From contig CALVXO010000004.1 in assembly GCA_944371325.1 (NCBI GenBank), positions 4,950-68,949 on the forward strand: DNA of 64,000 nt, written 5' to 3'. Under the pieces are notes generated by a model that saw only the letters and a list, made by a program, of their open reading frames with translations, had not been told where the DNA came from and did not search any database. The position numbers were made by a program, and so were the translations under genes. Every line of letters starts with the position of its first letter. Position 1 is the first letter of the stretch. The stretch is from an uncultured Bacilli bacterium (lineage in GTDB: Bacteria; Bacillota_I; Bacilli_A; RF39; UBA660). Positions 2,287-40,200 of the stretch are shown here, in pieces.

Positions 2287-3146
2287 TATAATCCTCCCAA
2301 ATCATCCATCTTACCACCAATTTTTTTATATATTAAAATTAAAATAGTGGTTAATAAAATTAAAAATACTGATATAGCTGCACCAAACGGCCAATTTCTA
2401 GCAGTTAAAAATTGATTTTTTATTAAATTACCTAATATCATTATCTTGCCACCACCTAATATATCAATAATAAAGAAACATCCTAAAGCTGGTGTAAAAA
2501 CCATAATAGCACCATTAAATAATCCTGATAAAGTTTGAGGTAAAATTATATTTAAAAATCTTTTAACTTTAGATGCACCTAAATCGCTTGCAGCTTCTAA
2601 AGTATATTTATCAATATTACTTACAGCATTATATAAAGGTAAAATCATAAAAGGTATAAACGTATACACCATTCCTATAATAATTCCTATGTTGTTATAC
2701 ATTAAGCTTAATGGATTATCAATAATGTTAAAATTTAATAATAATTCATTTATTGCTCCAGATTTTCTAAGCAATACAATCCAACCATACATTCTAATTA
2801 ATGAATTTGTTAAAAAAGGAACCATAACTAATGTCATAATTATTTGTTGTGCTTTTTTACTTTTGTGAGAAATTGCTAGAACAAATGGATATGAAATTAA
2901 AATACAAATTAAAGTTGTTACTAAAGCTATAACAATTGAATTTATAAAAATCCTTAAATAAACTAAATTAAATAATTCTTTATAATTTTCTAATGTAAAG
3001 TCGTAAATCATACCTCCATAGAAATCACTTTTAAAGAAACTGATTGTTAAAATATATAAAAGTGGTAAAACAATCAATAACAAAGTATATAGGATAACAG
3101 GGGTTATAAAAACAAATCTTAAAGTTTTATTTTTCATTGTCTTCAC
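2286..3146 (-). CDS. potB: Spermidine/putrescine ABC transporter permease
   Basis: Multi-TM, PFLTNSLIRMYGW, EAASDLGAS, NWPFGAAIS. Confidence 0.9.
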   Translation of the reverse strand: MKTMKNKTLRFVFITPVILYTLLLIVLPLLYILTISFFKSDFYGGMIYDFTLENYKELFNLVYLRIFINSIVIALVTTLICILISYPFVLAISHKSKKAQQIIMTLVMVPFLTNSLIRMYGWIVLLRKSGAINELLLNFNIIDNPLSLMYNNIGIIIGMVYTFIPFMILPLYNAVSNIDKYTLEAASDLGASKVKRFLNIILPQTLSGLFNGAIMVFTPALGCFFIIDILGGGKIMILGNLIKNQFLTARNWPFGAAISVFLILLTTILILIYKKIGGKMDDLGGL

Positions 3147-4179
3147 TTTCTAATATTATAGCATCTTCAATATCCCATGTTAAATACACTTCATCATTTC
3201 TTTTATATAATTTGTCATTACCAGAAATTATTGCTTTAATTATTTTTTTATTTACTTTTATTAATATTTTAGTAAAAGCACCATCATATATTTGTTCATA
3301 TATAGTGCCAACCAAATCACTATTTTTTTCTTTAGATAATTTAACATTTTCTGGTCTTACAATCAAATCTACTTTAGTATCATTTTTAAATTTAGATATT
3401 ATTTTAATATTTGCTTCTTCACAAACACAAACATCATCTTTTACAATTCCTTTAAAAATGTTTGCTTCTCCCAAAAAATCTGCAACATAAATAGATTTAG
3501 GTTTTTCATAAACTTCAACCGGTGTACCTATTTGTTCTATTCTGCCATCTTTAATAACAGCAATTCTATCACTCATAGATAACGCTTCATCCTGATCATG
3601 CGTAACATATATGAATGTTATTCCTAATTTTTTTTGTAATTGTTTCAATTCTATCTGCATTTTTTTTCTTAATTTTAAGTCTAAAGCAGATAATGGCTCA
3701 TCTAATAATAATACTTTAGGGTTATTAATTAATCCTCTTACGATTGATACTCTTTGTTGCTCACCACCAGACAATTCTTTAGGTTTTCTTTTTTCATAAC
3801 CCTCCAAATGAACAAGTTCAATCATTTCCTTAACTCTTTTTTTTCTTTCCTGTTTTGGAACTTTTTTCATTTTTAGTCCAAATTCGATGTTTTTTTCAAT
3901 TGTCATCAAAGGAAATAAAGCATAATTTTGAAATATTGTATTTACTTGTCTTTCAGTTGGATCTAACTCTGTAACATCTACTCCATCCAAATATACTCTT
4001 CCACTTGTTGGTCTATCCATGCCAGAAATAGATCTTAAAATAGTTGTTTTGCCACAACCACTAGACCCTAAAAGAGTAATAAACTCACCTTCATAAACTT
4101 CCAAATTAATATTCTTAATAATTTCCTTTTCACCATAATTTTTTGTAAAGTTTTCCAATTTTACAATAACCTTTTTCAT
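3127..4179 (-). CDS. potA: Spermidine/putrescine ABC transporter ATPase
   Basis: Walker [37 protein letters not shown]-terminal TOBE-like region. Confidence 0.92.
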   Translation of the reverse strand: MKKVIVKLENFTKNYGEKEIIKNINLEVYEGEFITLLGSSGCGKTTILRSISGMDRPTSGRVYLDGVDVTELDPTERQVNTIFQNYALFPLMTIEKNIEFGLKMKKVPKQERKKRVKEMIELVHLEGYEKRKPKELSGGEQQRVSIVRGLINNPKVLLLDEPLSALDLKLRKKMQIELKQLQKKLGITFIYVTHDQDEALSMSDRIAVIKDGRIEQIGTPVEVYEKPKSIYVADFLGEANIFKGIVKDDVCVCEEANIKIISKFKNDTKVDLIVRPENVKLSKEKNSDLVGTIYEQIYDGAFTKILIKVNKKIIKAIISGNDKLYKRNDEVYLTWDIEDAIILESEDNEK

Positions 4180-4280
4180 ATCTCACCTACTTATATAAAT
4201 ATTTTACTACATTTTTTAACATTTTTAAACATTAACACATTAATTTTTTTTGAATAGAATAAAAACGAAAGGAGAATTGA

Positions 4281-5264
4281 ATGAAAAAAGTGATTATTCC
4301 AATAATTATTGTTTTAATTGTTGGTATTATTGTTAGTTTTATATTTTTTAGAGAAAAAAGTGATTTAAAGAAAGTTAAGGTAGCAGAAGTAACTCATAGT
4401 ATTTTTTATGCTCCACAATATGTTGCTCATGCTTTAGGTTATTTTGAAGAAGAAGGTTTAGATGTTGAATTATTATTAGTTCCAGGTGCTGATAAAGTAG
4501 CAGCATCAGTATTATCAGGAGATGTTCAAATTGGATTTTGTGGTAGTGAGGCAACTATCTATATTTATAATCAAGGTCAAGAAGATTATTTAGTTAATTT
4601 TGCAGGTTTAACCAAAAGAGATGGTAGTTTTATTGTATCAAGAGAAAAAATTGATAATTTTACATTAGAAGATTTAAAAGGTAAAACCATAATTGGTGGA
4701 AGAATTGGTGGTATGCCAGAAATGACTTTAGAGTACACTTTAACTAAAGCTGGTATTGATCCTAAAAATGATTTAAATATTGATACAAGTATCGAATTTG
4801 CAGCTATGTCAGGAGCTTTTATTGGTGGTACTGGTGATTTCGTATCTTTATTTGAGCCAAATGCTTTACAATTAGAACAACAAGGTTATGGTTATGTTGT
4901 AGCTTCTTTAGGAGAATTAGGTGGAGTTGTTCCATATACAGCATATAACGCTAAAAAAAGTTATATTGAAAATAATCCTGATGTAATTGAAGGATTTACT
5001 AAAGCAATTCAAAAAGGATTAGATTATGTTCATAGCCATAATTCTAAAGAAATTGCTGAAATCATTTTAGATTATTTTCCTGATATTTCTAAAAATGATT
5101 TAGAAACAATCATAGATAGATATAAAGATATAGATTCTTGGTTTACTACAACTTATATAACTGAAGAAAACTTTAATCATATTCAAGAAATAGCTGAAAA
5201 TGCTGGCCAATTAGATGAAAGAGCTCCATTTGACAAATTAGTTAACAATACATATTCAAAATAA
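4281..5264 (+). CDS. NitT/TauT-family ABC substrate-binding protein (YtlA-like)
   Basis: N-terminal TM anchor, VAEVTHSIFYAPQYVA and GGMPEMTLEY motifs typical of YtlA/NMT1-like binding proteins. Confidence 0.8.
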   Translation: MKKVIIPIIIVLIVGIIVSFIFFREKSDLKKVKVAEVTHSIFYAPQYVAHALGYFEEEGLDVELLLVPGADKVAASVLSGDVQIGFCGSEATIYIYNQGQEDYLVNFAGLTKRDGSFIVSREKIDNFTLEDLKGKTIIGGRIGGMPEMTLEYTLTKAGIDPKNDLNIDTSIEFAAMSGAFIGGTGDFVSLFEPNALQLEQQGYGYVVASLGELGGVVPYTAYNAKKSYIENNPDVIEGFTKAIQKGLDYVHSHNSKEIAEIILDYFPDISKNDLETIIDRYKDIDSWFTTTYITEENFNHIQEIAENAGQLDERAPFDKLVNNTYSK

Positions 5265-5292
5265 AAGTTATTCAAACACGAATAACTTTTTT
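5263..5292. terminator. Likely bidirectional intrinsic terminator
   Basis: aaaagttattc-N6-gaataactttt hairpin with A/T tails between convergent genes. Confidence 0.65.
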
Positions 5293-5293
5293 G

Positions 5294-5968
5294 TTAAGCA
5301 AATAAATAATTTATAATATCGCCATTTTCATATTCAATTATTACTGAATATATAACTGATCCTACCGAATTAAATGTTAACTTATTATCTTCAAATTTAT
5401 ATTTTAAATTTTCCTTTTTGTCATCATAGTTAGCAGTTACTTCTTTTACTGTAAATTTATCTTCACTTGTAAATAAAATTCTAGAATCACTTATAGTGAT
5501 ATATTCATAATCCATATTTTCATATTTTATTTTAAAATATTCTAAAGGAGAAATATTTAAATCATATTCTTGATTATTTAATTTAACTGGTAAACTATTT
5601 ATATTAATTAAACTAATGCCTTCTTCATTATCAATTATCGATTTTATTTCAACTCTATTTTTATAATCTAATAACTTTACATCATCATCACAATTACTTA
5701 TAATTGAACTTTTTTCTTCTTTAGTAGTTCCTAAATATTTAATTTTATTAATTGTTTTATCAATTCCTTCAACTTCTAATTTATCGCCAACTTTAAAAAC
5801 ATTTGAATCAATTGTAGCATTAAACCCTTTTACTTCAACATTAACACTAGAAAAAGAAATAACATCAGTTACTGTCGCAATTTCTTTAAATGATTTATCC
5901 CTATTTATAAGTAAAAATATTAATACAATAATTATTATTACACTAATCCCAATTACGACTTTTTTCAT
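5294..5968 (-). CDS. Hypothetical membrane-anchored protein (paralog of 11894..12571)
   Basis: N-terminal hydrophobic anchor; shares PxKLxxQEY..SPxE and the C-terminal pattern with 11894..12571. Confidence 0.7.
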   Translation of the reverse strand: MKKVVIGISVIIIIVLIFLLINRDKSFKEIATVTDVISFSSVNVEVKGFNATIDSNVFKVGDKLEVEGIDKTINKIKYLGTTKEEKSSIISNCDDDVKLLDYKNRVEIKSIIDNEEGISLININSLPVKLNNQEYDLNISPLEYFKIKYENMDYEYITISDSRILFTSEDKFTVKEVTANYDDKKENLKYKFEDNKLTFNSVGSVIYSVIIEYENGDIINYLFA

Positions 5969-6131
5969 TATATCACCACCGATCTAGTCATTTATTATCA
6001 AAATTATTACTAGAAACATTATATCAAAAATACTATTATAAGTAAATTATGTTAAATTAACAAAAAATTAATTTATATATTATATTTTTATTAATTGTAT
6101 GTTAATATATTAATGAAAGGAAGGTAATAGA

Positions 6132-7091
6132 ATGAAAAATGAAATTATATTATTTGAAGACCAAAATGTTAGACTGGAGGTGAATTTAAAAGATGAAACA
6201 GTTTGGTTAACACAAGAACAAATGGCAAGACTATTTGATAGAGATAAGTCAGTTATTTCAAGGCATATTAAAAATGCTTTAAGCGAAGAATTAAATGAAA
6301 AAGAGGTAGTTGCATTTTTTGCAATTACCACTAAACATGGTGCAATGAACGATAAAATTCAAACTCATATGGTAGAACATTACAACTTAGATATGATTAT
6401 ATCTGTTGGTTATAGAGTTAAATCTAAAAATGGCATCATATTTAGAAAATGGGCTAATCAAATATTAAAAGATTATTTAATTAAAGGTTATGCTGTTAAT
6501 AATAAAAGATTAGAATATTTAGAAAAAACAGTTAAATTAATCGATATAGCTAGTAGAATCGATGACGATATAAATAGTAACGAAGCAAAACAAATTATTA
6601 AAGTAATCAATAATTATTCTAATGCTTTAAATTTGTTAGATGATTATGATCATAAAACTATTAAAAAACCAAAAGGAACGAATAATGAAAGCATAATAAC
6701 TTATGAAGAGTGTATTGATGTAATTAATAATTTAAAATTTAATAATGATAGTGATTTATTTGCTTTAGAAAGAAATAAAGGATTAAAAGGAATAATTGGT
6801 AATATTTATCAATCGTTTGATGGTAAAGACTTATATCCAACGATAGAAGAAAAATGTACTAATCTATTATATTTAGTCATTAAAAATCATGTGTTTATCG
6901 ATGGCAACAAAAGAATTGGCGCAACATTATTTATCTATTTTTTAAATTATTATGATTTACTTTATAAAGATAATAAACAAGTAATTGATAATAACACATT
7001 AGTTGCTATTACTATTTTAATAGCGCAATCAAATCCAAAAGAAAAAGAAGTAATTATTGATTTGTTAATGAATTTTTTAATAAAAAACTAA
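6132..7091 (+). CDS. RhuM-family / Fic-Doc domain fusion protein
   Basis: N-terminal ETVWLTQEQMARLF...YNLDMIISVGYRVKS (RhuM-like); C-terminal Fic motif HVFIDGNKRIG. Confidence 0.88.
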   Translation: MKNEIILFEDQNVRLEVNLKDETVWLTQEQMARLFDRDKSVISRHIKNALSEELNEKEVVAFFAITTKHGAMNDKIQTHMVEHYNLDMIISVGYRVKSKNGIIFRKWANQILKDYLIKGYAVNNKRLEYLEKTVKLIDIASRIDDDINSNEAKQIIKVINNYSNALNLLDDYDHKTIKKPKGTNNESIITYEECIDVINNLKFNNDSDLFALERNKGLKGIIGNIYQSFDGKDLYPTIEEKCTNLLYLVIKNHVFIDGNKRIGATLFIYFLNYYDLLYKDNKQVIDNNTLVAITILIAQSNPKEKEVIIDLLMNFLIKN

Positions 7092-26764: not shown

Positions 26765-27919
26765 CTACCTCCTTACAGCTAATAAATAAATTGCTGCTGC
26801 AAATTCTTTTGGAAAAAAATTAAATACAGCATTTATTTTATCACAATTTTGTAATTTTAAATATATATATTTTGTAATAATAGATTTATCAAGTATTTTT
26901 TTTATTTCATCTAAATCAAATTTATCAAAATTAATATCTTTAGTTTCTTCTAATTTATCTAAAAGAATTTTATTTAAATCATAAGAATTATATATTTTAT
27001 CAACTTTAACTTTAAATATTTCTAATGTGTCTTCAATTATTTTGTTAAATTTTTTTTGATCATAATTTTTAAAATTGCCAATATAACTTAATTTACTACA
27101 AATATCATCTATTTGATTATGATAACTATAATATAAATTTGTTAACGTTCCTTTTTTAAAAGTATATAACTTACCATCTAATTTTTTAAACTTTTTTAAT
27201 GTATCGTTATATCCTAATTTAATCATCCTTTTAGTTACATTTGAATCAAACATTAAAAATGAATCTAATTTATTATTTGGTTCAATATAAGTTATTTTTA
27301 TATCTTTATTTTTTATTCTTTTTTTAAATCCTATCGAACCTAAATCCACAGCAATTATTTCAGTAGCTCCTAATTCTATTGCCAAATTGATTGGTAAATT
27401 ATCATAATATCCACCATCTACTAAAATGTCATTGCCAATTTTAGTTGGTTTAAAAAAGGGAAAACATGTAGCAGATGCTAATATATATTTTTTTAATTTA
27501 TCAGGTCTAGTATTTTTTTTAGTTGAAACAGTAACCTTTCTAGTTGACAAATTGAAAGAAACCACACCAAAAGCAATTCTAGAATTATATAGTTTATCAG
27601 GCTTATAATTATCATTGATCAATTGTTCTATTTTTTTAGTATCGATACCACCATCAACTATTTTATTTAAATATTCTAAATACATCTCTTTAGAATTATT
27701 TATTTGTTTAAAATTATCATATAAAATATCATAATTAATATTTTTCCATATCCTCAAACATTTATAAAATTCTTTTTGAGTCATCATCATTCCATTTATT
27801 GCCCCAATAGAAGTACCTGTTACAATATCGTATTTAATATGTAATTTACGAAGTGCTTTCCAAACACCAACTTCATAAGCTCCTTTAGCTCCACCACCAG
27901 ATAATACAATAGCTAGCAT
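26765..27919 (-). CDS. Patatin-like phospholipase
   Basis: GGGAKG, GTSIG, DGG motifs. Confidence 0.9.
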   Translation of the reverse strand: MLAIVLSGGGAKGAYEVGVWKALRKLHIKYDIVTGTSIGAINGMMMTQKEFYKCLRIWKNINYDILYDNFKQINNSKEMYLEYLNKIVDGGIDTKKIEQLINDNYKPDKLYNSRIAFGVVSFNLSTRKVTVSTKKNTRPDKLKKYILASATCFPFFKPTKIGNDILVDGGYYDNLPINLAIELGATEIIAVDLGSIGFKKRIKNKDIKITYIEPNNKLDSFLMFDSNVTKRMIKLGYNDTLKKFKKLDGKLYTFKKGTLTNLYYSYHNQIDDICSKLSYIGNFKNYDQKKFNKIIEDTLEIFKVKVDKIYNSYDLNKILLDKLEETKDINFDKFDLDEIKKILDKSIITKYIYLKLQNCDKINAVFNFFPKEFAAAIYLLAVRR

Positions 27920-27931
27920 ATTTCATCTCCA

Positions 27932-29155
27932 TTAATTAGAATACACATAAAAATTAATATTCTTATTAAATTCTAATTCTTTATAATCTAAAATATTTTT
28001 TATTCCAAATGTATCATTAAAAACTTTAACTTTATTATCTTCTATAAAATAAACATAATTATCAACATAATTAATTGAATCGATTGATTGTGTACTAAAT
28101 AAATAGATAAGACCTAATTGATTTTGCTTGTTAATTCTATAACAATCATATTTATTGCCATTCTTTTTATATAAGTAATAGTAACTATCTACTTGATCTA
28201 TTTTAATATAATCATTGTTTTCATAATCAACTTTATTAACAACAAATTTTTTTTCTTCTTTAGCTTCTTTTACTGTCATTGTTGTCCATGTTCCATCATA
28301 ATACTTAATTTCATTACTTAATTTTATTATAGTTTGTTTTGCTGGATCAATTTCATATTGAATATTATTATCTTTATCATATAAATAAATTTTATTATCA
28401 ACAACACCTTGAATATAACTATCCGTAGAAATTGCTTTATCAGATACAATTGTACTTGATTTTAATGTTACCATATTAATAACATTTATTTTATTAAAAC
28501 TATGTTCTTCATTATAATCAGCTACAACATAATAACTATCAACAAATGTACCTAATTTTTGATTATATATATCTTTTTTAAATAAACTTATATTATGAAT
28601 AATAGAATCAAATTTATTATTAATGTTATAAAGACCTTTATAATTCGTAATTCCGATAAAATGATTATCTATCAAATTTTTCGTATATATATTAATATTT
28701 TCTTTTGTTTCGCTTTCCGTACTATCAATAAATTTGTTTTTATCATATAAACTAATACTGTTTACAAAATCATCAAGTCCCTGATCATTTAGGTTATGAT
28801 AATAAACCAAATGATTATCATTCATACACATTACATCAGTAAATGTTTTATTTCCTTTAAATATTGGTAAAATACATTCATATTTTTCATTTTTATAATA
28901 ATATATATCAGTTAACACTTTAAAACTTTTATTGTAATCATTAAAAATTTGAAAAGAAAAATTAGTTTCATTAACCATTATTTCATACAAATAACTATTG
29001 TTTTCAAAATTAGATAATTCTTTTATATTAAAAACATAATCATCCTTATTTATCTTATATTCATACTCTTGACCATCACTAAACCAATAAAAAGCAAATT
29101 GGATACCTAAATATAATGCAAATAATACTACTAACATAAAAAATAATTTTCTCAT
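27932..29155 (-). CDS. Hypothetical membrane-anchored protein
   Basis: Start reassigned to MRKLFF after a GGTGA RBS; N-terminal TM, beta-rich extracellular part. Confidence 0.7.
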   Translation of the reverse strand: MRKLFFMLVVLFALYLGIQFAFYWFSDGQEYEYKINKDDYVFNIKELSNFENNSYLYEIMVNETNFSFQIFNDYNKSFKVLTDIYYYKNEKYECILPIFKGNKTFTDVMCMNDNHLVYYHNLNDQGLDDFVNSISLYDKNKFIDSTESETKENINIYTKNLIDNHFIGITNYKGLYNINNKFDSIIHNISLFKKDIYNQKLGTFVDSYYVVADYNEEHSFNKINVINMVTLKSSTIVSDKAISTDSYIQGVVDNKIYLYDKDNNIQYEIDPAKQTIIKLSNEIKYYDGTWTTMTVKEAKEEKKFVVNKVDYENNDYIKIDQVDSYYYLYKKNGNKYDCYRINKQNQLGLIYLFSTQSIDSINYVDNYVYFIEDNKVKVFNDTFGIKNILDYKELEFNKNINFYVYSN

Positions 29156-29235
29156 ATACTCACCTATAATTATTATATATGATTTTTTTATAATTATCAA
29201 TATATAATAATTATAAAATTAGGTGTTTAATTCAC

Positions 29236-29262
29236 ACCCTTTTGTCATTGTTGAATATGCTA
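29236..29262 (+). promoter_or_regulatory. Possible sigmaK-like promoter of the coat gene
   Basis: AC-N16-AATAtgcTA versus consensus AC-N16/17-CATAnnnTA; a weak motif in AT-rich DNA. Confidence 0.4.
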
Positions 29263-29288
29263 TATTAGAAAATGAAAGGGTGGATTTT

Positions 29289-29489
29289 ATGTGTAATAAT
29301 GAAAATGAATCTTGCAAATGCATAGCAGAAATATTAACAGTAATATGTATTTTACAACAAAACGCAAATTGTTCTGATTCATGTTTAGATACATGTGATC
29401 GTGGATTTTTAGGCTGTGGCACTACTACTTATACTTGCAATACAAGACCTATAATGTTATATACATGCTGTGGTAATGGAACACCATGG
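29289..29489 (+). CDS. CotY/CotZ-family spore coat protein, 5' half (interrupted)
   Basis: MCNNENESCKCIAEILTVICILQQ...CLDTCDRGFLG...NTRPIMLYTCCGNGTPW resembles the Cys-rich N-half of CotY/CotZ/ExsY; RBS gaaagggtgg; stop one codon past the junction. Confidence 0.85.
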
Positions 29490-29911
29490 GATTGACGTTA
29501 AAGTGATAAATTATAATTAAAAGATAACATAAATATTGACACTAAACGGCATATATAAGTCGTTTTTTTATTATTTAATAATCAAATACGCCACATCGCC
29601 AACTATAAATAATGGCCTGCCTTTATAAATTTAAGAAAATTTTTCTTTTTTTTAAAAGCACTTATAAAAAATCATTTAAATGTGATAAACAATAATATAT
29701 TTTTTTATTATAAATAAATAAGTAAGTAGAAATTTTAACTCTAATAACAAACATTAGGGGTATTTTACAATCAATAAAAACAAATAATAATTGATATTAA
29801 ATATTGCTAATAAACGTTGTTTAAAGTCTTAAAAAATTACAAATTATTGGAAATATATGGTAAAATAAGGTTGTATTAATTAATTTTTTTCAAAGGGATA
29901 GTGATTAAACA

Positions 29912-32815
29912 ATGATTAAAAAACACAATAAAGATAAAAGCAGTGAAAATAATAATATATTTTTAGAAACACCTATTGATAAAATAGAAGATGATAAATT
30001 TGGTTGTGTATCCTATTCCAAACAAATCGTTTCTGCTTTTGAAAAAGGTGCTAAATTTATAGCAATAGATGGTGAATATGGTGTAGGAAAATCAAGCATA
30101 TTAAATTTAACAAAAAAACTAATTGAAGACAAAAATAAATATAAAATATTTAATCATTTTAGGCAAAAAAAAGATTATTTTGTAAATATAAATTTTTTAA
30201 ATATTAATAATGTTTCCACTGAAGAATCGGACAAGATAAACAATTATCATAGATATTTTGTAAATCAAACAGCTAATGATTTATATAGAAATCCATATGA
30301 TATTGAAAAACTTTTTTATCATAATTTTGTTTCATATTCAACGATTTCATTAAAAAATGATAATTTATTTAAAAAAATTATTGATAAAGCATTATTAATA
30401 TTATTGGCTTTTATATCACTTTATTTAATCTATTCAAGCTTCTTTAAAAATTTCGAATTACTAAAGGGCTTATATAACTTTTCTACAGAAATAATGCCAT
30501 ATATCTTATTTACATTATTTATCTTATTAATTTTATATGGATATGGTTTTTATAAGCCTGATAAGTCTGAAATAAGTCCTATGCTCGAAGTAGATAAATG
30601 TAGGAATAATTTGTGCAAAATATTATTTAATAAAATTCCTAAAAACAGCAATGTTTATTTTATATTAGATGACTTAGATAGATTAGAAAATAATTTACAA
30701 TTACAAATCATTTCATTGTTATATAATGAATATTTCCCTTTAGATAAAATCATTAAAGATATAAATTTAAAATTTATTTTTATGATTAATATAAGTGAAT
30801 TGAATAAATTGAATAAATTAAATGAATCAGATAAATCGAATGAGCCAAATGAATTAAAAAAATTAAATGCACCTAAAAAATCAAATAATAATAACAATAT
30901 TAATGTAAATAAACTATTTGACTATATCATAAATATATCTAATAACCAAATCACAATTTTAAGAAATTATTTAATTAGAAACATAGAAAATAATACTATA
31001 TTGGAAAAATTATTTGATATTAAAGAAAAAGATTATATAATTGGTTTAATTTTAAATAACTACAATAGTATAAGAAAAATAAAACATTTTCTCAATAGAG
31101 TTATTACAAAATATATTTATTTAACCAATAAAAATTATAAATATTTAAATAATGCTCAATTAATATGCATATGTATATTGATTAATTTAACAGATACTGA
31201 AACATTAAATAATAATATAAATAATATAATACATAATTATAATTATTCACTAGAAAAAAATGATGAAGACGAAAATATATTAAATATTATAAAAGAGTTA
31301 TATGAAAGAAAACTAATTGATAATAATTATTATGTTTATTTATATAATTTTATAGACATAGATGATTTATTAAATAATGATGAACAATTTATATATAATA
31401 TATTAAATAATTTATCAAAATTAAAAGAAGATGATTTGATTAAAATGTATGAGATATTAGATGGAAATTATGTTTCATTTTCAAAAATATATAATGAGAT
31501 ATATAAATATGTTTCCAATAATTCAAAAATACTATTACTAGGAAATAAAACATTTAATAGTTTTATGGAATCAAATTATCAAATTGATTATGAAATATTT
31601 AAAAATTTATATAGAAATCCGTTTATTTATTTTTGCTATGAATTTTTAAATAATAAATATTATTATGCCATGGATGATGAAATTGAATTGTTAGAAAAAT
31701 ATTTTCAAAATTTTGAACAACAATCGTCTATAGTTAGCAATAAAGAAAAAGATGATTTTGTTAATGAATTAAAAATTTTTATAAAAAATATGAAATACAA
31801 TATTAAATTTTTTAATTTTCAAAAATATTTTAATTGGTTGGAACTTGATAAAAATTTATTTACTTTAATTTATAATCAAAAAGAAAAAAAAGTATCAGTT
31901 ATATATGAAATGATTTTAAATGAAAAACTATCTTGGGATATTATTGAAGATTTTGTTAATGAATCAATAATAAATGATATATTAAGTATCCAAGATGATG
32001 AATTTAGACTACAAATAGAAGAATGCTATTTGAAATGGAGCAAATCATTTGATTTTATGATTCAAATAATCTATAAAGAAAAAAGAATTATTAACGATAT
32101 TGAAGAAATTTTTACAAAATTAAATCAATTTGAAGACAATAAAATAGATTTAGAAACACTAAAAACAATTATAAATAAGTATGGCTATTTAAAAATATTT
32201 GACAAATATTTAATTAATAACTTAAAAGAAAACGAAAACGATACAATTTGTTATATTAATGAAAATAAATTTGATATTTCTGAAAATATAATAAATGCAA
32301 TAAATGAATCAAATTACGCACACAAATTTAAAGAACACTATAATAATTTATTTTTAAAATATAAATATTATAAACTATATATATATTCAAAAGCAAAAAA
32401 AAATAAAACTTTCGATATTAATTTAAAATTAAAATCAAACGAAAAATATATACACTCTTTATTGGAAATTTTTGAATCATTAAATACTGATTGGAAAAAT
32501 TATAATTTTACTGACAATTTTAAATCTTTAATAATTAAAGAAATAAATATAGATACAATAGAATTAACTGATAAAGATTTTTGGAAAATATTAAAGTTAA
32601 TTCCACAAATAAATAATCACAATGAATCATTTAAATTTTTTAATAGGATTAGAAATTTAAATTTATTAGATAAATTTTGCTCATATTGTTCACGAAATTG
32701 TAATGATAAAGATTTCATAAATAATTTGAATTTATTTGTTTCAGAATTTGGCACAACAGGAAATAAAATTGTAATTACAAAATTAAAAAATAAAATCGAG
32801 GAAAAGCAAAAATAG
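29912..32815 (+). CDS. KAP-family P-loop NTPase with two TM helices and a long C-terminal region
   Basis: N-terminal P...DKFG, Walker A GEYGVGKSS, two TM segments inserted before Walker B FILDDLDRL, SIRKIKHFLN. Confidence 0.8.
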   Translation: MIKKHNKDKSSENNNIFLETPIDKIEDDKFGCVSYSKQIVSAFEKGAKFIAIDGEYGVGKSSILNLTKKLIEDKNKYKIFNHFRQKKDYFVNINFLNINNVSTEESDKINNYHRYFVNQTANDLYRNPYDIEKLFYHNFVSYSTISLKNDNLFKKIIDKALLILLAFISLYLIYSSFFKNFELLKGLYNFSTEIMPYILFTLFILLILYGYGFYKPDKSEISPMLEVDKCRNNLCKILFNKIPKNSNVYFILDDLDRLENNLQLQIISLLYNEYFPLDKIIKDINLKFIFMINISELNKLNKLNESDKSNEPNELKKLNAPKKSNNNNNINVNKLFDYIINISNNQITILRNYLIRNIENNTILEKLFDIKEKDYIIGLILNNYNSIRKIKHFLNRVITKYIYLTNKNYKYLNNAQLICICILINLTDTETLNNNINNIIHNYNYSLEKNDEDENILNIIKELYERKLIDNNYYVYLYNFIDIDDLLNNDEQFIYNILNNLSKLKEDDLIKMYEILDGNYVSFSKIYNEIYKYVSNNSKILLLGNKTFNSFMESNYQIDYEIFKNLYRNPFIYFCYEFLNNKYYYAMDDEIELLEKYFQNFEQQSSIVSNKEKDDFVNELKIFIKNMKYNIKFFNFQKYFNWLELDKNLFTLIYNQKEKKVSVIYEMILNEKLSWDIIEDFVNESIINDILSIQDDEFRLQIEECYLKWSKSFDFMIQIIYKEKRIINDIEEIFTKLNQFEDNKIDLETLKTIINKYGYLKIFDKYLINNLKENENDTICYINENKFDISENIINAINESNYAHKFKEHYNNLFLKYKYYKLYIYSKAKKNKTFDINLKLKSNEKYIHSLLEIFESLNTDWKNYNFTDNFKSLIIKEINIDTIELTDKDFWKILKLIPQINNHNESFKFFNRIRNLNLLDKFCSYCSRNCNDKDFINNLNLFVSEFGTTGNKIVITKLKNKIEEKQK

Positions 32816-32839
32816 CATTAAAAATTATGCTATTTTTTT
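32811..32839. terminator. Intrinsic terminator between the KAP gene and the XRE gene
   Basis: aatagcat-N8-atgctatt followed by a T run. Confidence 0.55.
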
Positions 32840-32889
32840 ACTTATATAGTATTGTGGAAAACATATATAAATATACTAGTACATTAAGA

Positions 32890-33141
32890 TTAAAATTTAT
32901 TTACTTTAAAAAAGTCAGCTATATCAATTCCTAAAGCTTCTGAAATTCTTCCAAGAACTGCAATGGTTAAATGTTTATTACGTTTTTCATTTTCAATATC
33001 ACATATATATTCTCTTGACATTTCTGTCATGTCAGCTAAATCTTGTTGTGTCAAATTTTTTTCTAATCTAAATTTTTTTATGTTTTTTCTAATTATAGAA
33101 TAATAATATTCATTATCATGAATATATGCTTTTTCCTTCAT
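32890..33141 (-). CDS. XRE-family HTH transcriptional regulator
   Basis: IKKFRLEKNLTQQDLADMTEMSREYICDIEN...ISEALGI. Confidence 0.9.
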   Translation of the reverse strand: MKEKAYIHDNEYYYSIIRKNIKKFRLEKNLTQQDLADMTEMSREYICDIENEKRNKHLTIAVLGRISEALGIDIADFFKVNKF

Positions 33142-33241
33142 CTATTTCACCAACCTATAATTAGTATGTTATTTTTTTTCAAAAATATATATAGGCTAAC
33201 AGCCACATTTGTGATATAATAAATTATGAAAGGAGTTAAAT

Positions 33242-33463
33242 ATGGGAAAGCCAAAAAAAAATAATGAATTTAAATGGTATCATTGGTTTGGAATAGGCCT
33301 ACTTTTTCTTATGATTTATATTGGAATATCTGAAGGAAACGAAGAAACAGTTGAAGACCAAATTGACAGATTAAATCGTGAAAGTTGCAGTTCACAAACA
33401 AACACTTTTTACAAATGCAGTTGGAGTTTTTGGGAAGATAGATGCGTATGTAAAGAAAGATAA
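33242..33463 (+). CDS. Small membrane protein with a Cys-rich C-terminus
   Basis: Strong RBS aaggag, one TM helix, four Cys. Confidence 0.65.
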   Translation: MGKPKKNNEFKWYHWFGIGLLFLMIYIGISEGNEETVEDQIDRLNRESCSSQTNTFYKCSWSFWEDRCVCKER

Positions 33464-33639
33464 ACCAATAGAAAAGTACATTTTGTACTTTTTTTTGTAC
33501 ATTTTTCTATAAAAATTATTAATTTTAAAACTTTTTTTTCAAAAAGTTGATTATAGACAAAATAGCATGATATAGTGTTGTCGCTAGCAAAAAAAAGATT
33601 AATTTGTCGACAATTAAAAATTTAAGAAAGGAGAAGAAT

Positions 33640-34674
33640 ATGAAAAATTTTAAATTGGAAAGTTTTGATTCAATTACAGAAGAAGAAATTGAATGGTTAT
33701 GGAAGCCATATATTCCACTCGGAAAATTAACAATGTTCGCTGGAGATCCTAGCGTCGGAAAAAGCTTTATAAGTACATTTTTGGCAAGTACAATATCTAC
33801 TGGAAGCAAATTTCCGTTTAGTGATGAAATAGTTGAAAGTGGAAATGTTATAATTTTAAATGCTGAAGATGGTAATGCTGATTGTATTAAAAAGAGATTA
33901 CGATTAAGTAATGCTAATTTTGAAAATATCTATACCTTATTAAGTGTAGATAATAAGAAATTTTTCACACTAAAAAATTTATCTGATTTAGAGGATATGA
34001 TTCAAGAAGTTAAGCCAAAACTAATAATTATTGACCCTATTACCTCTTATTATGGAGAAGGAGTTGATACTTTTAAAGATAGTTCTGTTCGAGCTATACT
34101 TGCACCAGTTGTAGAATTAGTTTCTAAATATAAAGTTGCCTTACTAGGAATAATACATTTTAATAAAGGAAATGATAAAGCAATATATAAAATGAATGGT
34201 AGTATTGCAAATATGGGCTTACCTCGTTCTGTTATTTATGCAGTGCATTCTAATAACAATGATGAAAGATTACTAATTCATATAAAATCTAGTAATGCAG
34301 AATTAGGAGAAAGTATTGCTTATCGTATTACAGATAATGGGATTGAATGGCTTGGAATACGTGGAAAAATTAATGCGGATGAAGTAATTTCTAATGAAGA
34401 ATCTAATCAATATGAAATTGCCTGTGATTTTATATTAGACTACCTAAAAGATGGTAAACAGCTCGGAAGCAATCTATTGAAAAATGCTTTAGAAAATGGT
34501 ATAGCAAAAAGAACGTTGGAACGAGCTAGAGCAAATTTGAAAAAAAACGATATTATTAATAATGTGATTATTGATTTTAAAACATATTGGTATATTGTTG
34601 ATAAGAAAAAACTAGATAATAAAGTTGAAAATGAAACTAATTTAGATGATATTAATCCATTTGATGACATTTAA
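33640..34674 (+). CDS. RepA-like (AAA_25 / SF4-type) replicative helicase
   Basis: IEWLWKPYIPLGKLTMFAGDPSVGKS, AED, LIIIDPI, H.NK, C-terminal HTH-like RTLERAR; ATG after an aaggag RBS. Confidence 0.82.
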   Translation: MKNFKLESFDSITEEEIEWLWKPYIPLGKLTMFAGDPSVGKSFISTFLASTISTGSKFPFSDEIVESGNVIILNAEDGNADCIKKRLRLSNANFENIYTLLSVDNKKFFTLKNLSDLEDMIQEVKPKLIIIDPITSYYGEGVDTFKDSSVRAILAPVVELVSKYKVALLGIIHFNKGNDKAIYKMNGSIANMGLPRSVIYAVHSNNNDERLLIHIKSSNAELGESIAYRITDNGIEWLGIRGKINADEVISNEESNQYEIACDFILDYLKDGKQLGSNLLKNALENGIAKRTLERARANLKKNDIINNVIIDFKTYWYIVDKKKLDNKVENETNLDDINPFDDI

Positions 34675-34873
34675 AATTACTTAGTAGCCAAATAAAATGG
34701 CGATGTGGCGTAGTAAAAAGACTATGAAAATAATCATAGTCTCTCGCCATTAATATTTATATATTGAATCCAGTTAAATTATACCATAATATAAATTTTA
34801 AGTCTATATAATCATTATTGTTATGCAAATTATAAATACACACTAATATAATATATAAAGGGGTTGTGATATT

Positions 34874-34990
34874 ATGAATGTTGAAGTTTTTTATAACGAA
34901 AATGGTAAAACATTTCAAGAGATTATGGAATACTTTTTAATAGAAATGTGTGATACACAAAGTGCCAGTTTTATTGAGAAATATGCCTAA
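34874..34990 (+). CDS. 38-aa small ORF upstream of the recombinase (candidate recombination directionality factor)
   Basis: Manual translation MNVEVFYNENGKTFQEIMEYFLIEMCDTQSASFIEKYA; RBS aagggg; below the ORF-track length cutoff. Confidence 0.55.
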   Translation: MNVEVFYNENGKTFQEIMEYFLIEMCDTQSASFIEKYA

Positions 34991-35002
34991 ATATGATATA
35001 AT
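34974..35002 (+). promoter_or_regulatory. SigmaA-like promoter of the recombinase
   Basis: TTGAGA-N17-TATAAT with extended -10 TG. Confidence 0.6.
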
Positions 35003-35038
35003 ATTACTGTCAATATGTGTTATCTAGAAGGAGGCAAA

Positions 35039-36601
35039 ATGGTAGATAATAACACATATAAAGTTGGTTTATATATTAGATTATCTAGGGAAGATGAAGA
35101 TAATAATGGAGAAAGTGAAAGTATTACTAATCAAAGAAATTATTTGTTAGAATATGTAAAAAATAATCACTTTATTCTAATTGATGAATATGTTGATGAC
35201 GGGTTTACTGGAACAAATTTTGAGAGACCAGCATTTAAAAGAATGATTAAAGATATAGAACTTGGTAAAATAAATTGCGTTATTACTAAAGATATGTCAA
35301 GACTAGGAAGAGATTATATTGGTATAGGAACCTATATGGAAAAATACTTTCCAGAGCATAATATAAGATATATTGCTGTCAATGATAATATTGATTTAAA
35401 GGATGGTAAAATAGACAATATGGCTCCTATTAGAGCAGTATTTAATGACTATTATGCTAAAGATATTTCTGACAAAGTTAAAAGCACTATTACTAATAAA
35501 AAAAGAAATGGACAATTTTTAGGTGGAGTCCCACCCTATGGTTATAAGTTTGAAAGCGATGACAATCATTATAAATTAGTAATAGATGAAGAAACTAGCA
35601 TAGTTGTTAAGAGAATGTTTAATATGTTTGTTGGTGGCAAAAGTTTAAAATATATTGCTGATACACTAACAAGTGAGAATATTCCTATTCCTAGTATCCA
35701 TAAAAATTTAAATAGAGGCCTTAAGTCTACTGCTTATGGAGTATGGCAAACAAGAACTATTGATGAAATACTTAAAAATCCTACATACATAGGAAACTTA
35801 ACGCAAGGTAGAAGAAAGAAAATTAATTATAAAATTAAAAAAGTTGTTAGAGTCCCTAAAGAACAATGGATTGTATGCGAAAACACACATGAGCCTATTA
35901 TAGATAAAGAAACATTTGAGCAAGTACAAAATATCTATGAAAAGAATAAAAGCTTAAATCGTAGCAAAAATCATTTATTATTAAGTGGTTTTATATATTG
36001 CAAAGAATGTGGGCATAGAATTGGAATTAGTCAAAGCTCTAATAAAAAATTTTATTGTAGTTGTAATTATTACAAAAAATACTCTAAATTAGGCCTATGT
36101 ACACCCCATTCTATACCTTATAATGTGTTAGAAGATATAATACTAAAAGAAATAAGAAAAGAATGCAAAAAGAGTGTTAAAGGCGATAAATTTAAAGACA
36201 TAATTAAAAGTAATGACAAAAAAGAAAAAGCCAAAGTTAATTTAATACAATTAATTAAACAAAAAAAGCAAGATATAGAAAATACAAAAAATGCAATTGA
36301 TGATTTATATATAGAAAAACTTAAAAAAAATATAAGTAGTGAAAGATATACTAGTGTATATAATAAATTAAATAGCGAATTTAACGTTTTAAACGAAGAT
36401 TTAAAAGCACTAGAAACAGATTATTCATATTTGCTAGGAAACGTTAAAAACAGCCCTAGTATCAATTATACAAAGGCTGTTAACGAATATTTAGCATTAA
36501 AAAATCCTACTAGAGAATTACTTGCGAACTTAATAGACAAAATTGTTATAGATGAAGATAAAAATATACAAATATACTACAAAATAAAAAAAGCATGGTA
36601 A
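35039..36601 (+). CDS. Large serine recombinase (resolvase + recombinase + zinc ribbon + coiled coil)
   Basis: YIRLSRED catalytic Ser, DDGFTGTNFERP, KDMSRLGR, PPYGY, HEPII, CKECG...C...C; start MVDNN after an aaggagg RBS. Confidence 0.95.
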   Translation: MVDNNTYKVGLYIRLSREDEDNNGESESITNQRNYLLEYVKNNHFILIDEYVDDGFTGTNFERPAFKRMIKDIELGKINCVITKDMSRLGRDYIGIGTYMEKYFPEHNIRYIAVNDNIDLKDGKIDNMAPIRAVFNDYYAKDISDKVKSTITNKKRNGQFLGGVPPYGYKFESDDNHYKLVIDEETSIVVKRMFNMFVGGKSLKYIADTLTSENIPIPSIHKNLNRGLKSTAYGVWQTRTIDEILKNPTYIGNLTQGRRKKINYKIKKVVRVPKEQWIVCENTHEPIIDKETFEQVQNIYEKNKSLNRSKNHLLLSGFIYCKECGHRIGISQSSNKKFYCSCNYYKKYSKLGLCTPHSIPYNVLEDIILKEIRKECKKSVKGDKFKDIIKSNDKKEKAKVNLIQLIKQKKQDIENTKNAIDDLYIEKLKKNISSERYTSVYNKLNSEFNVLNEDLKALETDYSYLLGNVKNSPSINYTKAVNEYLALKNPTRELLANLIDKIVIDEDKNIQIYYKIKKAW

Positions 36602-36634
36602 AGGTATTATTTGTAACTATATGTACAAACGTGG

Positions 36635-36880
36635 AGTATGCCAACAACTAAAGATACAACTGACTGTACTGATACTCCAACACCATCAAATTGTTCAAAC
36701 GTATTTAGAATTGAAAAAATTGACGGATGTTGCGCAACTTTTAGAGTTCTAGCACCAAATACTGATCCTCTAACACAAGCAGCTATTCCATATGTATCAA
36801 CTAATTCTTTTTTTACTATGAATTTGAATTGCGTTTGTAGTTTAAGATGCTTACAAGATACATACGTTGAATGTTTATAA
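36635..36880 (+). CDS. CotY/CotZ-family spore coat protein, 3' half (interrupted)
   Basis: SMPTT...CSNVFRIEKIDGCCATFRVL...TNSFFTMNLNCVCSLRCL matches the CotY/Z C-half pattern (FRVE..CA.L..L; T..C..VDL.CFCAI.CL). Confidence 0.85.
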   Translation, partial: SMPTTKDTTDCTDTPTPSNCSNVFRIEKIDGCCATFRVLAPNTDPLTQAAIPYVSTNSFFTMNLNCVCSLRCLQDTYVECL

Positions 36881-36896
36881 CATTAAAACAACGAAA

Positions 36897-37220
36897 TTAA
36901 TCGTTGTTTTTTTGAAATTCAATATCTAATATATCATTTACATTAATAACTTCATTATCCATAGTAATTAATTCATTTCTATTTCTTCCAATAATTCTTT
37001 TGTTCATTTTACCATTTTTAGTAGTAATAATAACATCTGCTTTATAAACATATCTAGCTGATGAAAAAATTTGATTTATTTTTTGATTAACAGTAAATAT
37101 AGAACTAGAATTATCTTTTTGTTCACTTCTTACTTCATTTTTATCATAATAAACAGTTTCGTTATTATTTAAATTTTTATCAATTTTATTAGCAAATACT
37201 TTAGGTAATTTTTTTTCCAT
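36897..37220 (-). CDS. Hypothetical protein
   Basis: 107-aa ORF with gaggtg RBS. Confidence 0.7.
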   Translation of the reverse strand: MEKKLPKVFANKIDKNLNNNETVYYDKNEVRSEQKDNSSSIFTVNQKINQIFSSARYVYKADVIITTKNGKMNKRIIGRNRNELITMDNEVINVNDILDIEFQKNND

Positions 37221-37275
37221 AGAACACCTCTTAATAAATTATATTATCTATTTTTAATAATATGAAAAAAATCAA

Positions 37276-40200
37276 TTAAAATAAACTTAATTGACTTGAT
37301 TCATCTAAATTATCTAAAATATGCATGTTACGCATTTTTTCAATTAAAGTACTAGATACCTTACCACGTTTTTGCAAATCTTCAATACTTAAGAATTCAC
37401 CTTTATTTCTTTCTTCTACTATTGTTTTAGCAACAGTATCACCTAATCCATCAATACTACTAAAAGGTGGAATTAAATTACCTTCTTCATCTAAAGAAAA
37501 TGTTGTAGCTTGACTTTTATTTAAATCAATATTTTTAAATTTTAGACCACGAGCTGTCATTTCTAATGCAAGTTTTAAGCATTCTAAAATACCACTTTCT
37601 TTGTTTGAAGCATCAAATCCTTTATTAGAAATTTCAACCATTCTGTTTTTAATAGCATCATAACCTTTTATCATTGTTTCAATATCAAAATCGGTTGCTT
37701 TAGTTGAAAACCATGATGCATAAAAATAACTTGGATAATGAACTTTGTAATAAGCTATTCTAAACGCGCTAGTAACATAAGCAGTTGCATGAGCTTTTGG
37801 GAACATGTACTTTATTTTACGACATGAATTGATATACCAATCTTCAATGCCAGCTTCTTTCATTTCTTGTTCAAATTCAACCCATTTATCAGGTTCTTTA
37901 CTTGCTTTACCTTTTCTTACAAATTCCATTATTTTAAATGCTTTAATTGGTTTCATTCCCTTTTGCATTAAATATACCATAATATCATCACGACAACCAA
38001 TTACTTCTTTAAATGGTACGATGTTGTTTTTTATTAATTCTTGAGCATTACCTAACCATACATCAGTACCATGTGACAAACCTGAAATTTTAATTAATTC
38101 AGCGAATGTTGTTGGTTTAGTTTCAGCTACTAATCCTATTGTAAATGGTGTCCCAAATTCAGGTATTCCTAAAGTACCAGTTTCATTTAATATTTGTTCT
38201 TTAGTAACGCCTAAAGGTTCAGGTGATAGAAATATTCCCATTGTTTTTTTATCATCTAAAGGTACTTTTGTTATATCATGACCAGATAAATCTTGAATCA
38301 TTCTTAATTGTGTTGGATCTGAATGACCTAAAATATCTAGTTTTAAAACGTCTTGATCAATTGCATGATAATCAAAGTGTGTTGTACGCCAAGCGCTGTT
38401 AGGATCATCCGCAGGATATTGGAAAGGAGTAAAATCAAAAACATCCATATAACCTGGTATTACAACGATTCCTCCTGGGTGTTGTCCTGTCGTTCTTTTA
38501 ACACCAGTACAACCGAGCGCCAATCTTTCAATTTCAGCTGATTTTTTAGTTATTCCTTTATCTTCACAATAACCCTTAACAAAACCATAAGCAGTTTTTT
38601 CTGCCACTGTACCAATTGTTCCAGCACGATATACATTATCTTCACCAAATAATACTTTTGTATATTCATGAGCAGCGGCTTGATTTAAATCGGAAAAATT
38701 TAAATCAATATCAGGAACTTTATCCGCATTAAAACCTAAGAATGTTGCGAATGGCATATCATTACCGTCTTTTAACATTTTAGTATTACACTTAGGACAT
38801 TCTAAATCAGGTAAGTCAAACCCAGATGAATAAGTATTAGCTAAAGGTACACCATCTATTTCAAATATACTATGTTTACAATTAGGGCAACGATAATGTG
38901 CCGGTAATGGATTTACTTCTGTTATTCCCATCATAGTAGCAACAAACGATGATCCAACAGATCCACGTGAACCTACTAAGAAGCCATCATCATTTGATTT
39001 TTTAACTAATTTTTGGGCAATTAAATAAATAACATCGAATCCTCCGCCGATAATACCACCTAATGTTTTTTTTAAATTTTTTTCAACTTCATCATCATTT
39101 AATTCTGGTTCAGTTATTTTAATTTCATTTCTAATTTTATCTTTAACAGCATCAAAGCCTTGTAATATGGTCTCATGTAATATTTTAAATCCTTCTTCTT
39201 CAATATTTTCAACATTATTTCTTTTTAATTCTGCTTTAATACTATTAAATATACCATCACCGTATAACTCTTTAGCAATTCGCTCTTCAATATTATAAGG
39301 TAATGGGTCACCATACCAATCCTTAGCTTTTGTGTAAACCAAATCAGTAACTGTTTCTACTGATTTATCGATTCTAGGTGAAAAAGGAACACCACCAGTT
39401 TCAATAATTACTTCAATAATATCAACCATATCCGCTATTTTGTTAGGATTAGTAATAACAATTTCTTTTCTTGTTTCTTCATCTAAAAAATCAAAATTTT
39501 CTAACATTTCATTAGTTGTTCTGAAATGTTGACTAGGTATTTCTGTTATACTATTTTTAGCTAAAGGATGTCTTCCGCCACCTGGCACTTTTTGATTAAC
39601 AATAATTTCCCTATATATTTTATCTTCTTTAAATAAATGATGAACATCACCAGTAGCTACTATTATTTTACCTGAATCTTTTGTTACTCTAATTATTTTT
39701 CTAATATGTTCCATTATTTCACTAACAGAACCAAAATCATTAGTTTGTAATAAGTGATTATAAGCATCTATTGGTTGAACTTCAACATAATCATAAAAAT
39801 TAATTATGTTAGTTAATTCTTCATCTGATTTACTTTTAGCTTCAATAAATACTTCACTTTCATAACATCCGCTACCTATTAATAAACCTTCTCTTAATTC
39901 ATTTAAAACACTTCTTAATATTCTAGGTGTCTTATATAAATAAACAGTGTTAGCCAAAGAAATGATTTTAAATAAATTTTTTAATCCTTTTTTATTCTTA
40001 ACTAAAATATTGACATGATAACTTCTTCCATATTTATGAATTTCACTTTTATCAATCATTTTGTTTAATTGAGAAACTCTTTCAATATTTTGACTTGATA
40101 GTTTTTGAAGCATTTTATGTAAAACTAAAGCCGTACCTTCTGCATCGTAATCTGCTCTATGGTGAGCATCTTCATCCCAAGGAACGTCATATCTTTTAAC

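Follow-up and report, generated by a model that had tools for sequence, protein, structure and literature searches.

The DNA analysed here is a stretch of 64,000 nucleotides (nt; the whole stretch is called the window) from an uncultured Bacilli bacterium (GTDB lineage Bacillota_I; Bacilli_A; RF39; UBA660), comprising positions 4,950 to 68,949 of the forward strand of contig CALVXO010000004.1 in assembly GCA_944371325.1. It carries a gene of the Spore-coat_CotZ (CotY/CotZ/ExsY) family that is split in two by a small, horizontally mobile integrative element, and the element encodes an enzyme that is, judged by its sequence, a large serine recombinase (LSR) of the integrase type. The source assembly, referred to below as G000, amounts to 1.57 Mb in 77 contigs and is 92% complete with 5% contamination. 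The two halves of the gene meet the element at two copies of the trinucleotide TGG that are spaced by 7,145 bp. When positions 29289-29489 were joined by script to positions 36635-36880, a single open frame of 148 amino acids (aa) plus a stop codon was obtained, containing 19 cysteines; in the interrupted state, the truncated frame of the 5' half runs into a stop codon at 29493-29495.

Each half exceeds the Pfam gathering cut-off for Spore-coat_CotZ (PF10612, 24 bits) separately, with matches that run colinearly along the profile (Table 1). In the sister genome G014 the gene is uninterrupted, and its protein, which has the same amino acid sequence as the joined product, matches profile positions 3-159 of 159 in one stretch with 53.8 bits. 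The N-terminal half is 100% identical to the N-terminal halves in G014 and in two other species of the genus (G004 and G008), and the 3' half is 100% identical to that of G014. The split gene is a member of this family, and its presumed role as a sporulation gene rests on the family assignment. When the flanks were aligned with G014, window positions 27000-29489 fell on 663-3155 and positions 36632-39000 on 3153-5522, an overlap of exactly 3 bp, which is the TGG; the insertion is conservative, the empty site overlapping the flanks by this core alone. Between the joined frame and the coding sequence of G014 there are 13 synonymous and no non-synonymous codon differences. Across the genus, the gene was present in 27 of the 30 species genomes; it is uninterrupted in 24 of these (149-170 codons from stop to stop) and interrupted in three. 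The intact alleles read through the joint as ...YTCCGNGTPWSMPTTKD..., and 17 of them show no variation in the TGG or in the ATGCC that comes next, the site not being the most conserved part of the gene. The original prediction, made from the letters of the window without database searches, had proposed a CotZ-family gene split at this Trp codon by an LSR element of this size, with both halves intact and a rejoined frame of this length; all of this stands, and the alleles of relatives join at the same position.

The same site has been occupied more than once. Four distinct elements with different cargo and with LSRs that are 49-63% identical lie at the same TG of the CotZ-family gene, in at least two genera of the family. 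The first is shared by G000 and G004 (contig C8, locus L040), where it measures 7,064 bp and is 96.8% identical over 7,058 aligned nt next to flanks of 82.7% and 86.6% identity; its recombinase is 99.7% identical to that of G000 as a gene and 100% identical as a protein. Beside it, two additional genes of 348 and 325 aa (L040 10326-12352) stand between the coat gene and a conserved 107-aa gene in G004 and are missing from G000. The second, in G008 (contig C27 of that genome, locus L041), has only 2,378 bp (L041 451-2828) and codes solely for a 33-aa open reading frame (ORF), a 510-aa recombinase (49-50% identical), and an adjacent toxin-antitoxin pair, RelB antitoxin (54.1 bits, L041 2223-2504) and YafQ toxin (YafQ_toxin, 101.4 bits, L041 2501-2806). 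This pair has a strong sigma-70-like site of its own at L041 2172-2200. The third is a 6,844-bp element in L046, a locus from a metagenome-assembled genome outside the 30 genomes of the genus, where the interrupted gene is 55-66% identical and the recombinase 49% identical; a matching intact allele was seen in G411:C53. The fourth, in G383 from a different genus of the family, is about 7.06 kb by hand count and has a recombinase of 63% identity and other cargo. In the G008, L046 and G383 elements the end repeat is reduced to the dinucleotide TG.

At least five split alleles exist, 150 of the 416 matches of an order-wide survey having been covered, and in 5 of the 5 found both halves are open and match to the ends of a family hidden Markov model built from 17 intact alleles. 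A FastTree phylogeny was built from 31 recombinases, 8 of them genomic and 23 taken from the 80 metagenome loci so as to be full-length and to cover a range of identities. It groups the enzymes of the four coat-gene elements with L045 and L057 in a six-member clade (support 0.889). No split CotZ-family gene was found beside related recombinases in the 80 metagenome loci, one of which (L126) has an intact gene nearby, or in 80 viral contigs.

The recombinase matches the Pfam domains Resolvase (80.1 bits), Recombinase (93.4 bits) and Zn_ribbon_recom (51.3 bits), all above the cut-offs, as well as the integrase family PHROG_95 (E 7e-104). The serine of its RLS motif is invariant in six homologues, and its ORF ends 30 bp before the right core. 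Counted outward from the TG, the number of matching positions between the two arms of the attP site, out of 26, is 16 in G000, 17 in G008 and 15 in L046 (shuffle means 7-8, p<=0.001), and an AAGTGA block at positions 13-18 is common to all three; for the host arms (attB) the corresponding numbers are 12, 12 and 7. The ends of the element are genuine LSR attachment (att) sites, dyad-symmetric about the TG, and from these sequences a recombination of attL with attR at the TG would rebuild exactly the allele found in the related genomes. An intron or intein was ruled out, since the 7-kb insert holds several genes and has the att sites of a recombinase. With the recombinase as query, 10 places were found in the 1.57-Mb G000 assembly, the closest paralogue being 42% identical (G000:C6:15892-17493).

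Table 1. Features at the interrupted CotZ-family locus (positions in the window)
Feature	Positions	Strand	Remarks
Promoter-like block upstream of the coat gene	29233..29262	+	CACAC, 16 nt, AATATGCTA; putative function
CotZ-family gene, 5' half	29289..29489	+	67 codons, ATG to Trp codon; PF10612 28.2 bits, profile 3-64
attL core TGG	29487..29489	+	Crossover dinucleotide most likely TG (29487-29488)
Element body	29490..36631	+	7,145 bp core to core; GC 22.1% vs 23.4% in the whole window
Terminator-like hairpin inside left end	29544..29565	+	From terminator scan
967-aa cargo protein, possible defence NTPase	29912..32815	+	Walker-A P-loop, two hydrophobic segments inside the P-loop region (read by eye)
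XRE/Cro-C1-type repressor, 83 aa	32890..33141	-	HTH_3 45.4 bits; PHROG transcriptional repressor; divergent from following genes
73-aa ORF	33242..33463	+	One hydrophobic segment; no family match; nucleotide sequence 100% identical in G004
AAA_25 (RepA/primase-helicase-like) ATPase, 356 aa	33604..34674	+	PF13481 102 bits
Acidic 38-aa small ORF, candidate directionality factor	34874..34990	+	Directly upstream of recombinase
Sigma-70-like promoter	34974..35002	+	TTGAGA-17 nt-TATAAT with extended TG; 11/12 positions match; precedes recombinase start
Large serine recombinase (predicted)	35015..36601	+	528 aa from first ATG; likely start 35039 after GGAGG, 520 aa
attR core TGG	36632..36634	+
CotZ-family gene, 3' half	36635..36880	+	81 codons plus stop (36878-36880); PF10612 29.9 bits, profile 81-159 (query 36632-36877)

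The element is recently mobile. Its 96.8% identity between G000 and G004, set against 83-87% in the flanks, indicates recent horizontal spread, and so does a copy without a single difference in the metagenome run X2, which lies beside flanks that differ from those of G000. The stretch was found mostly in chicken-gut metagenome runs (24 run records from 9 studies, 20 of them with at least half of its words), all as contigs and with no RNA dataset among the 24. In the run X1, which is possibly the source, one contig extends across the whole occupied locus with 0 differences. An assembly artefact or a chance arrangement was ruled out, the element being present in independent assemblies and runs.

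The original prediction had called the element skin-like; in the sense of a prophage remnant this did not hold. Searches of Pfam and PHROGs found no virion, packaging, lysis or conjugation genes on the element, and PHROGs recognized only the repressor, the primase/helicase-like ATPase and the integrase, leaving two ORFs without a family. A prophage or prophage remnant was ruled out by the lack of virion genes. Among 50,697 phage records no match extended beyond about 200 bp of the recombinase gene, and the phage recombinases are at most 35% identical to the LSR. Many of the phage records H3-H12 are 4-19-kb entries named 'Bacteriophage sp.' from human faecal samples, with recombinases about 32-35% identical; preparations of virus-like particles may often contain small recombinase elements.

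The 967-aa cargo protein matched nothing in Pfam, PHROGs or NCBIfam and gave a weak PADLOC match to PifA that is confined to N-terminal residues 14-76 (E 4.6e-8); it may be a phage-defence gene carried by the element. PHROG matches of the AAA_25 ATPase are to the C-terminal parts of DNA polymerase/primase families. Terminator-like sites in the region numbered 4 vs 0.8 expected from shuffles. Sigma-70-like sites are not above chance in this AT-rich DNA, with 89 found vs 84 expected in the window stretch and 28 vs 35 in L041.

The small ORF in front of the recombinase is conserved. Homologues of 29-38 aa with the motif Y-N-E-x-G-K-x-L-Q-E-I lie upstream of the LSR in all six genome loci (L044-L049) and in G383; one also precedes the paralogous recombinase on G000:C6, and among the 80 metagenome loci six were detected at E below 1e-7 and five weakly. 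A profile search of 1.84 billion representative proteins returned 87 at E<=1e-3, of which 81 are 29-94 aa in length and mostly matched from residue 1; the other six are long repeat proteins and probably spurious. Pfam and NCBIfam gave nothing at or above threshold, tblastn gave nothing in plasmids or phages, and the Atlas returned only unnamed clusters at 0.81-0.83, which is the chance level; of eight clusters looked up, one carried a name, 'hypothetical protein'. In G008 and L045 the small ORF and the recombinase start are adjacent or overlapping, and in G000 the sigma-70-like site lies between them. GirX, the directionality factor of the gin element, has 42 aa (PMC5595907), CD1234 of C. difficile has an isoelectric point of 5.5 (PMC5025042), and known directionality factors bind the junction of zinc ribbon and coiled coil (PMC12286644). 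Since it is small, acidic and linked to the recombinase, as known directionality factors are, we regard the conserved small ORF as a candidate recombination directionality factor.

The host appears to be a spore-former on paper, as G000 encodes SpoIVA and Spo0A, and its sigK is intact, with a score of 302.7 bits that exceeds the cut-off. Of the 401 genomes sampled from the order, where genomes are only about 1 Mb, 349 have the CotZ-family gene. In the order survey, genomes of 0.7-1.9 Mb with Spo0A, SpoIVA and sigma-K (on contigs C1, C18 and C25 in G000) look like a large family of putative spore-formers with very small genomes. Upstream of the coat gene, the block CACAC-16 nt-AATATGCTA is nearly invariant in an alignment of 18 upstream regions and is one mismatch away from AC-16/17-CATAnnnTA, which we take to be the sigma-K pattern; a loose form of this pattern occurs 24 times on both strands of the 64-kb window. 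A GC-rich hairpin, GGTGTTTAATTCACACC, at 29222-29238 overlaps the conserved CACAC block and was scored by the scan as terminator-like on both strands. The G000 assembly contains a second, intact CotZ-family gene (G000:C27:10231-10719), a frame of 163 codons that is 63% identical in the C-terminal half. Its contig of 14 kb has no synteny with the window and a GC content of 27.2% vs 23.4%, and may be contamination or a mobile region; it also holds a 622-codon serine recombinase (4313-6178), 4 kb from the CotZ-family gene, and has only two short matches of about 72% identity to L046.

By its sequence, the element lies inside the coding region of a mother-cell-type gene and brings its own recombinase, as do the sporulation gene-intervening elements skin, gin, vfbin, vrin, SPbeta and yin. 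The genes reported as split in this way are sigK, spoVFB, spoVR, spsM, gerE and kamA (PMC4191935; PMC6957869), with gerE split by the non-phage element gin (PMC5595907), yabG (PMC10747680) and spoVK (10.1101/2021.11.22.469490). A full-text literature search, to which supplementary target lists are external, returned no report of a split CotZ-family gene; like the original prediction, we did not find this gene described as a target.

Among the known systems, gin in gerE of B. cereus ATCC 10987 is similar in being a non-prophage element in a short mother-cell gene with an LSR (GirC) and a very small accessory protein without a family, and its att sites are likewise an imperfect inverted repeat (PMC5595907). 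The recombination unit of GirC and the 42-aa GirX (PMC5595907) is paralleled by the small ORF and LSR of G008. In contrast, the gin target is a regulator rather than a structural coat gene, its core is 9 bp instead of 2-3 bp, GirX and the small ORF are unrelated by the searches run, and excision has been demonstrated for gin (PMC5595907), whereas the CotZ element is known here from sequence only. Skin in sigK (B. subtilis SpoIVCA/Skr; C. difficile CD1231/CD1234) is also a serine-recombinase element in a late mother-cell gene (PMC5025042; PMC6957869), and in C. difficile a constitutive recombinase is combined with a small acidic mother-cell factor (PMC5025042), a layout that the CotZ element fits. 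The differences are that sigK is uninterrupted in G000, that the CotZ element is no prophage remnant, and that no sigma-E/SpoIIID-type signal was found with the patterns scanned for. SPbeta in spsM, phi12-5 in kamA and yin in yabG are still-mobile elements that split spore-envelope maturation genes and whose attB is conserved in element-free strains (PMC4191935, PMC10747680, PMC6957869); unlike the CotZ element of 7.1 kb (2.4 kb in G008), in which no virion genes were found, they are phages or phage-like and tens of kb in size. XisF of the fdxN element in cyanobacterial heterocysts is likewise an LSR, acting in a terminally differentiated cell, where it frees a gene of an inserted element. The NCBIfam XisF model is the second-best match to our LSR, at 112 bits, far short of the cut-off of 375, so that the two enzymes are not orthologous; they also differ in host and developmental programme.

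We propose, as a plausible reading to which we give somewhat less than an even chance, that the element is excised in the mother cell and that the coat gene is thereby rebuilt. The original prediction had likewise inferred developmentally programmed excision, an argument by analogy with the known elements. In this scheme the LSR would use the TG in the Trp-67 codon of the CotZ-family gene as attB and would be made from its own sigma-A-type promoter, and the acidic protein of 29-38 aa encoded just upstream would be its directionality factor, synthesized by the mother cell at a late stage of sporulation. Excision would be confined to the terminal cell, where the rebuilt coat gene would be expressed from its sigma-K-like promoter, and the spore, as the germ line, would keep the element. 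Elements in mother-cell genes are described as excising during sporulation or in dependence on growth phase (PMC4191935, PMC5595907, PMC10747680, PMC6957869). Four diverged elements at one dinucleotide, with intact gene halves, fit a site at which insertion is made harmless, and the 2.4-kb remnant in G008, which has retained the small ORF and the recombinase, fits such a site too. The layout, in which a small ORF precedes an LSR that has a sigma-A-like promoter, would fit the logic of skin in C. difficile. The sporulation genes of the host, the wide retention of the coat gene in the order and the conserved block upstream of it also count in favour of this reading, as do the precise insertion and the att sites.

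The most serious alternative, which we consider possible and yet doubtful, is a plain insertional knockout: the element would be an ordinary mobile island whose recombinase fits a conserved coding sequence by chance, it would stay put in sporulation, the spores would be formed without the coat protein or with a 68-aa fragment of it, and the cost would be tolerable. Several observations speak for it and weigh against programmed excision. Mutants of B. subtilis in cotY/cotZ still form viable spores, and a knockout might be tolerated here as well. Two related elements split a non-sporulation transporter gene for an NMT1/THI5-like substrate-binding protein, whose halves match profile positions 5-96 and 105-215: L048 (2173-12155; recombinase 45% identical) carries this small ORF along with XRE and AAA_25 genes resembling the G000 ones, and L049 (501-3802; 42%) is a 2.3-kb version with the same small ORF. 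The element family is therefore independent of an escape by way of the mother cell. Moreover, intact halves prove little in the case of an insertion that is recent and sporadic, occurring in 3 of the 27 genomes of the genus that have the gene. The sigma-K and sigma-E patterns scanned for were found in none of six elements within 220 nt upstream of the small ORF (66 nt in G008), and none of five strict sigma-K/E matches in the window precedes an ORF. The terminator-like hairpin behind the 5' half makes read-through from the coat promoter unlikely in G000, and the G000 assembly also holds the intact 163-aa CotZ-family gene on contig C27.

The metagenome contigs bear on the same question. The original prediction had suggested a search for the empty and the circular junctions. 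A joint from 29486 to 36632, skipping 7145 positions with 3 ambiguous letters, occurs in the contigs of 3 of 4 runs compared. In X2 the occupied and empty alleles coexist at comparable depth (43 vs 52), and the shared left-flank contig ends at 29479 with the occupied contig beginning at 29450, so that the two forms part at 29480 and not at the core; position 29480 is an A/G site that also separates G000 from G014. The empty contig of the run X3 has 22 differences over 422 nt. The empty alleles of X2 and X3 with their linked single-nucleotide polymorphisms thus belong to other strains and are not excision products, and the joint of an excised circle was absent from the 15 listed of 53 joints in the contigs of the four runs.

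What speaks against a knockout is that four diverged elements hold to one dinucleotide, that 5 of 5 split alleles found are intact, that the gene is kept in most of the reduced genomes of the order, and that the 2.4-kb remnant has a full-length recombinase together with the small ORF. The C27 copy may, by its GC content and lack of synteny, belong to another organism.

A further alternative, which we judge improbable, is that excision is real but tied to the element's own cycle: the XRE repressor would be released by stress, a helper phage or growth phase, AAA_25 would replicate the circle, dissemination would be that of a satellite or mobilisable island, and repair of the coat gene would be a by-product. 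The repressor, the divergent operon and the replication-type ATPase would suit such a life, as would the clear recent horizontal spread between species and strains; SPbeta answers to stress as well as to sporulation (PMC6957869), and excision of yin was seen at every time point (PMC10747680). Against this, no packaging, capsid, relaxase or coupling genes were found by Pfam and PHROGs, the 50,697 phage records hold no relative beyond the recombinase and the 80 viral contigs none linked to CotZ, and the G008 element has no repressor or ATPase genes yet keeps the site.

Returning to mother-cell excision, the G008 element would offer its simplest form. The small ORF and recombinase lie 65 nt behind the 5' half and the coat promoter 316 nt upstream of the small ORF, in both cases with no predicted terminator between; the coat gene's own promoter could therefore drive excision there, and RelB/YafQ would guard against loss of the element in growing cells. 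We consider it rather unlikely, on present analysis, that the whole of the following extension is correct: that the small ORFs are a new ultra-short directionality-factor family for this recombinase clade, that in G008 the small ORF and LSR are transcribed from the sigma-K-type promoter of the split gene, so that repair in the mother cell would be set off by the target gene itself (promoter capture), and that RelB/YafQ would punish loss in the germ line. If true, this would be a minimal, self-contained developmental DNA switch that recurs at one dinucleotide across genera of gut spore-formers with tiny genomes.

Should excision be tied to sporulation, a structural coat/crust protein would be added to the list of sigK, spoVFB, spoVR, spsM, gerE, kamA, yabG and spoVK, and the phenomenon would reach into a family of uncultured gut Bacilli whose genomes measure about 1 Mb. 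The 2.4-kb version would rank among the smallest such units. Whatever the timing, the locus provides four natural sets of recombinase, attP and attB that have the TG core and the target gene in common, along with sister enzymes directed at a different gene; these may be used to study what makes the site specificity of large serine integrases shift or persist, and to test a candidate mini directionality factor. The right host arm in the NMT1/THI5-like gene split in L048 and L049, TGGAATGCC, resembles the corresponding arm of the coat gene, TGGAGTATGCC.

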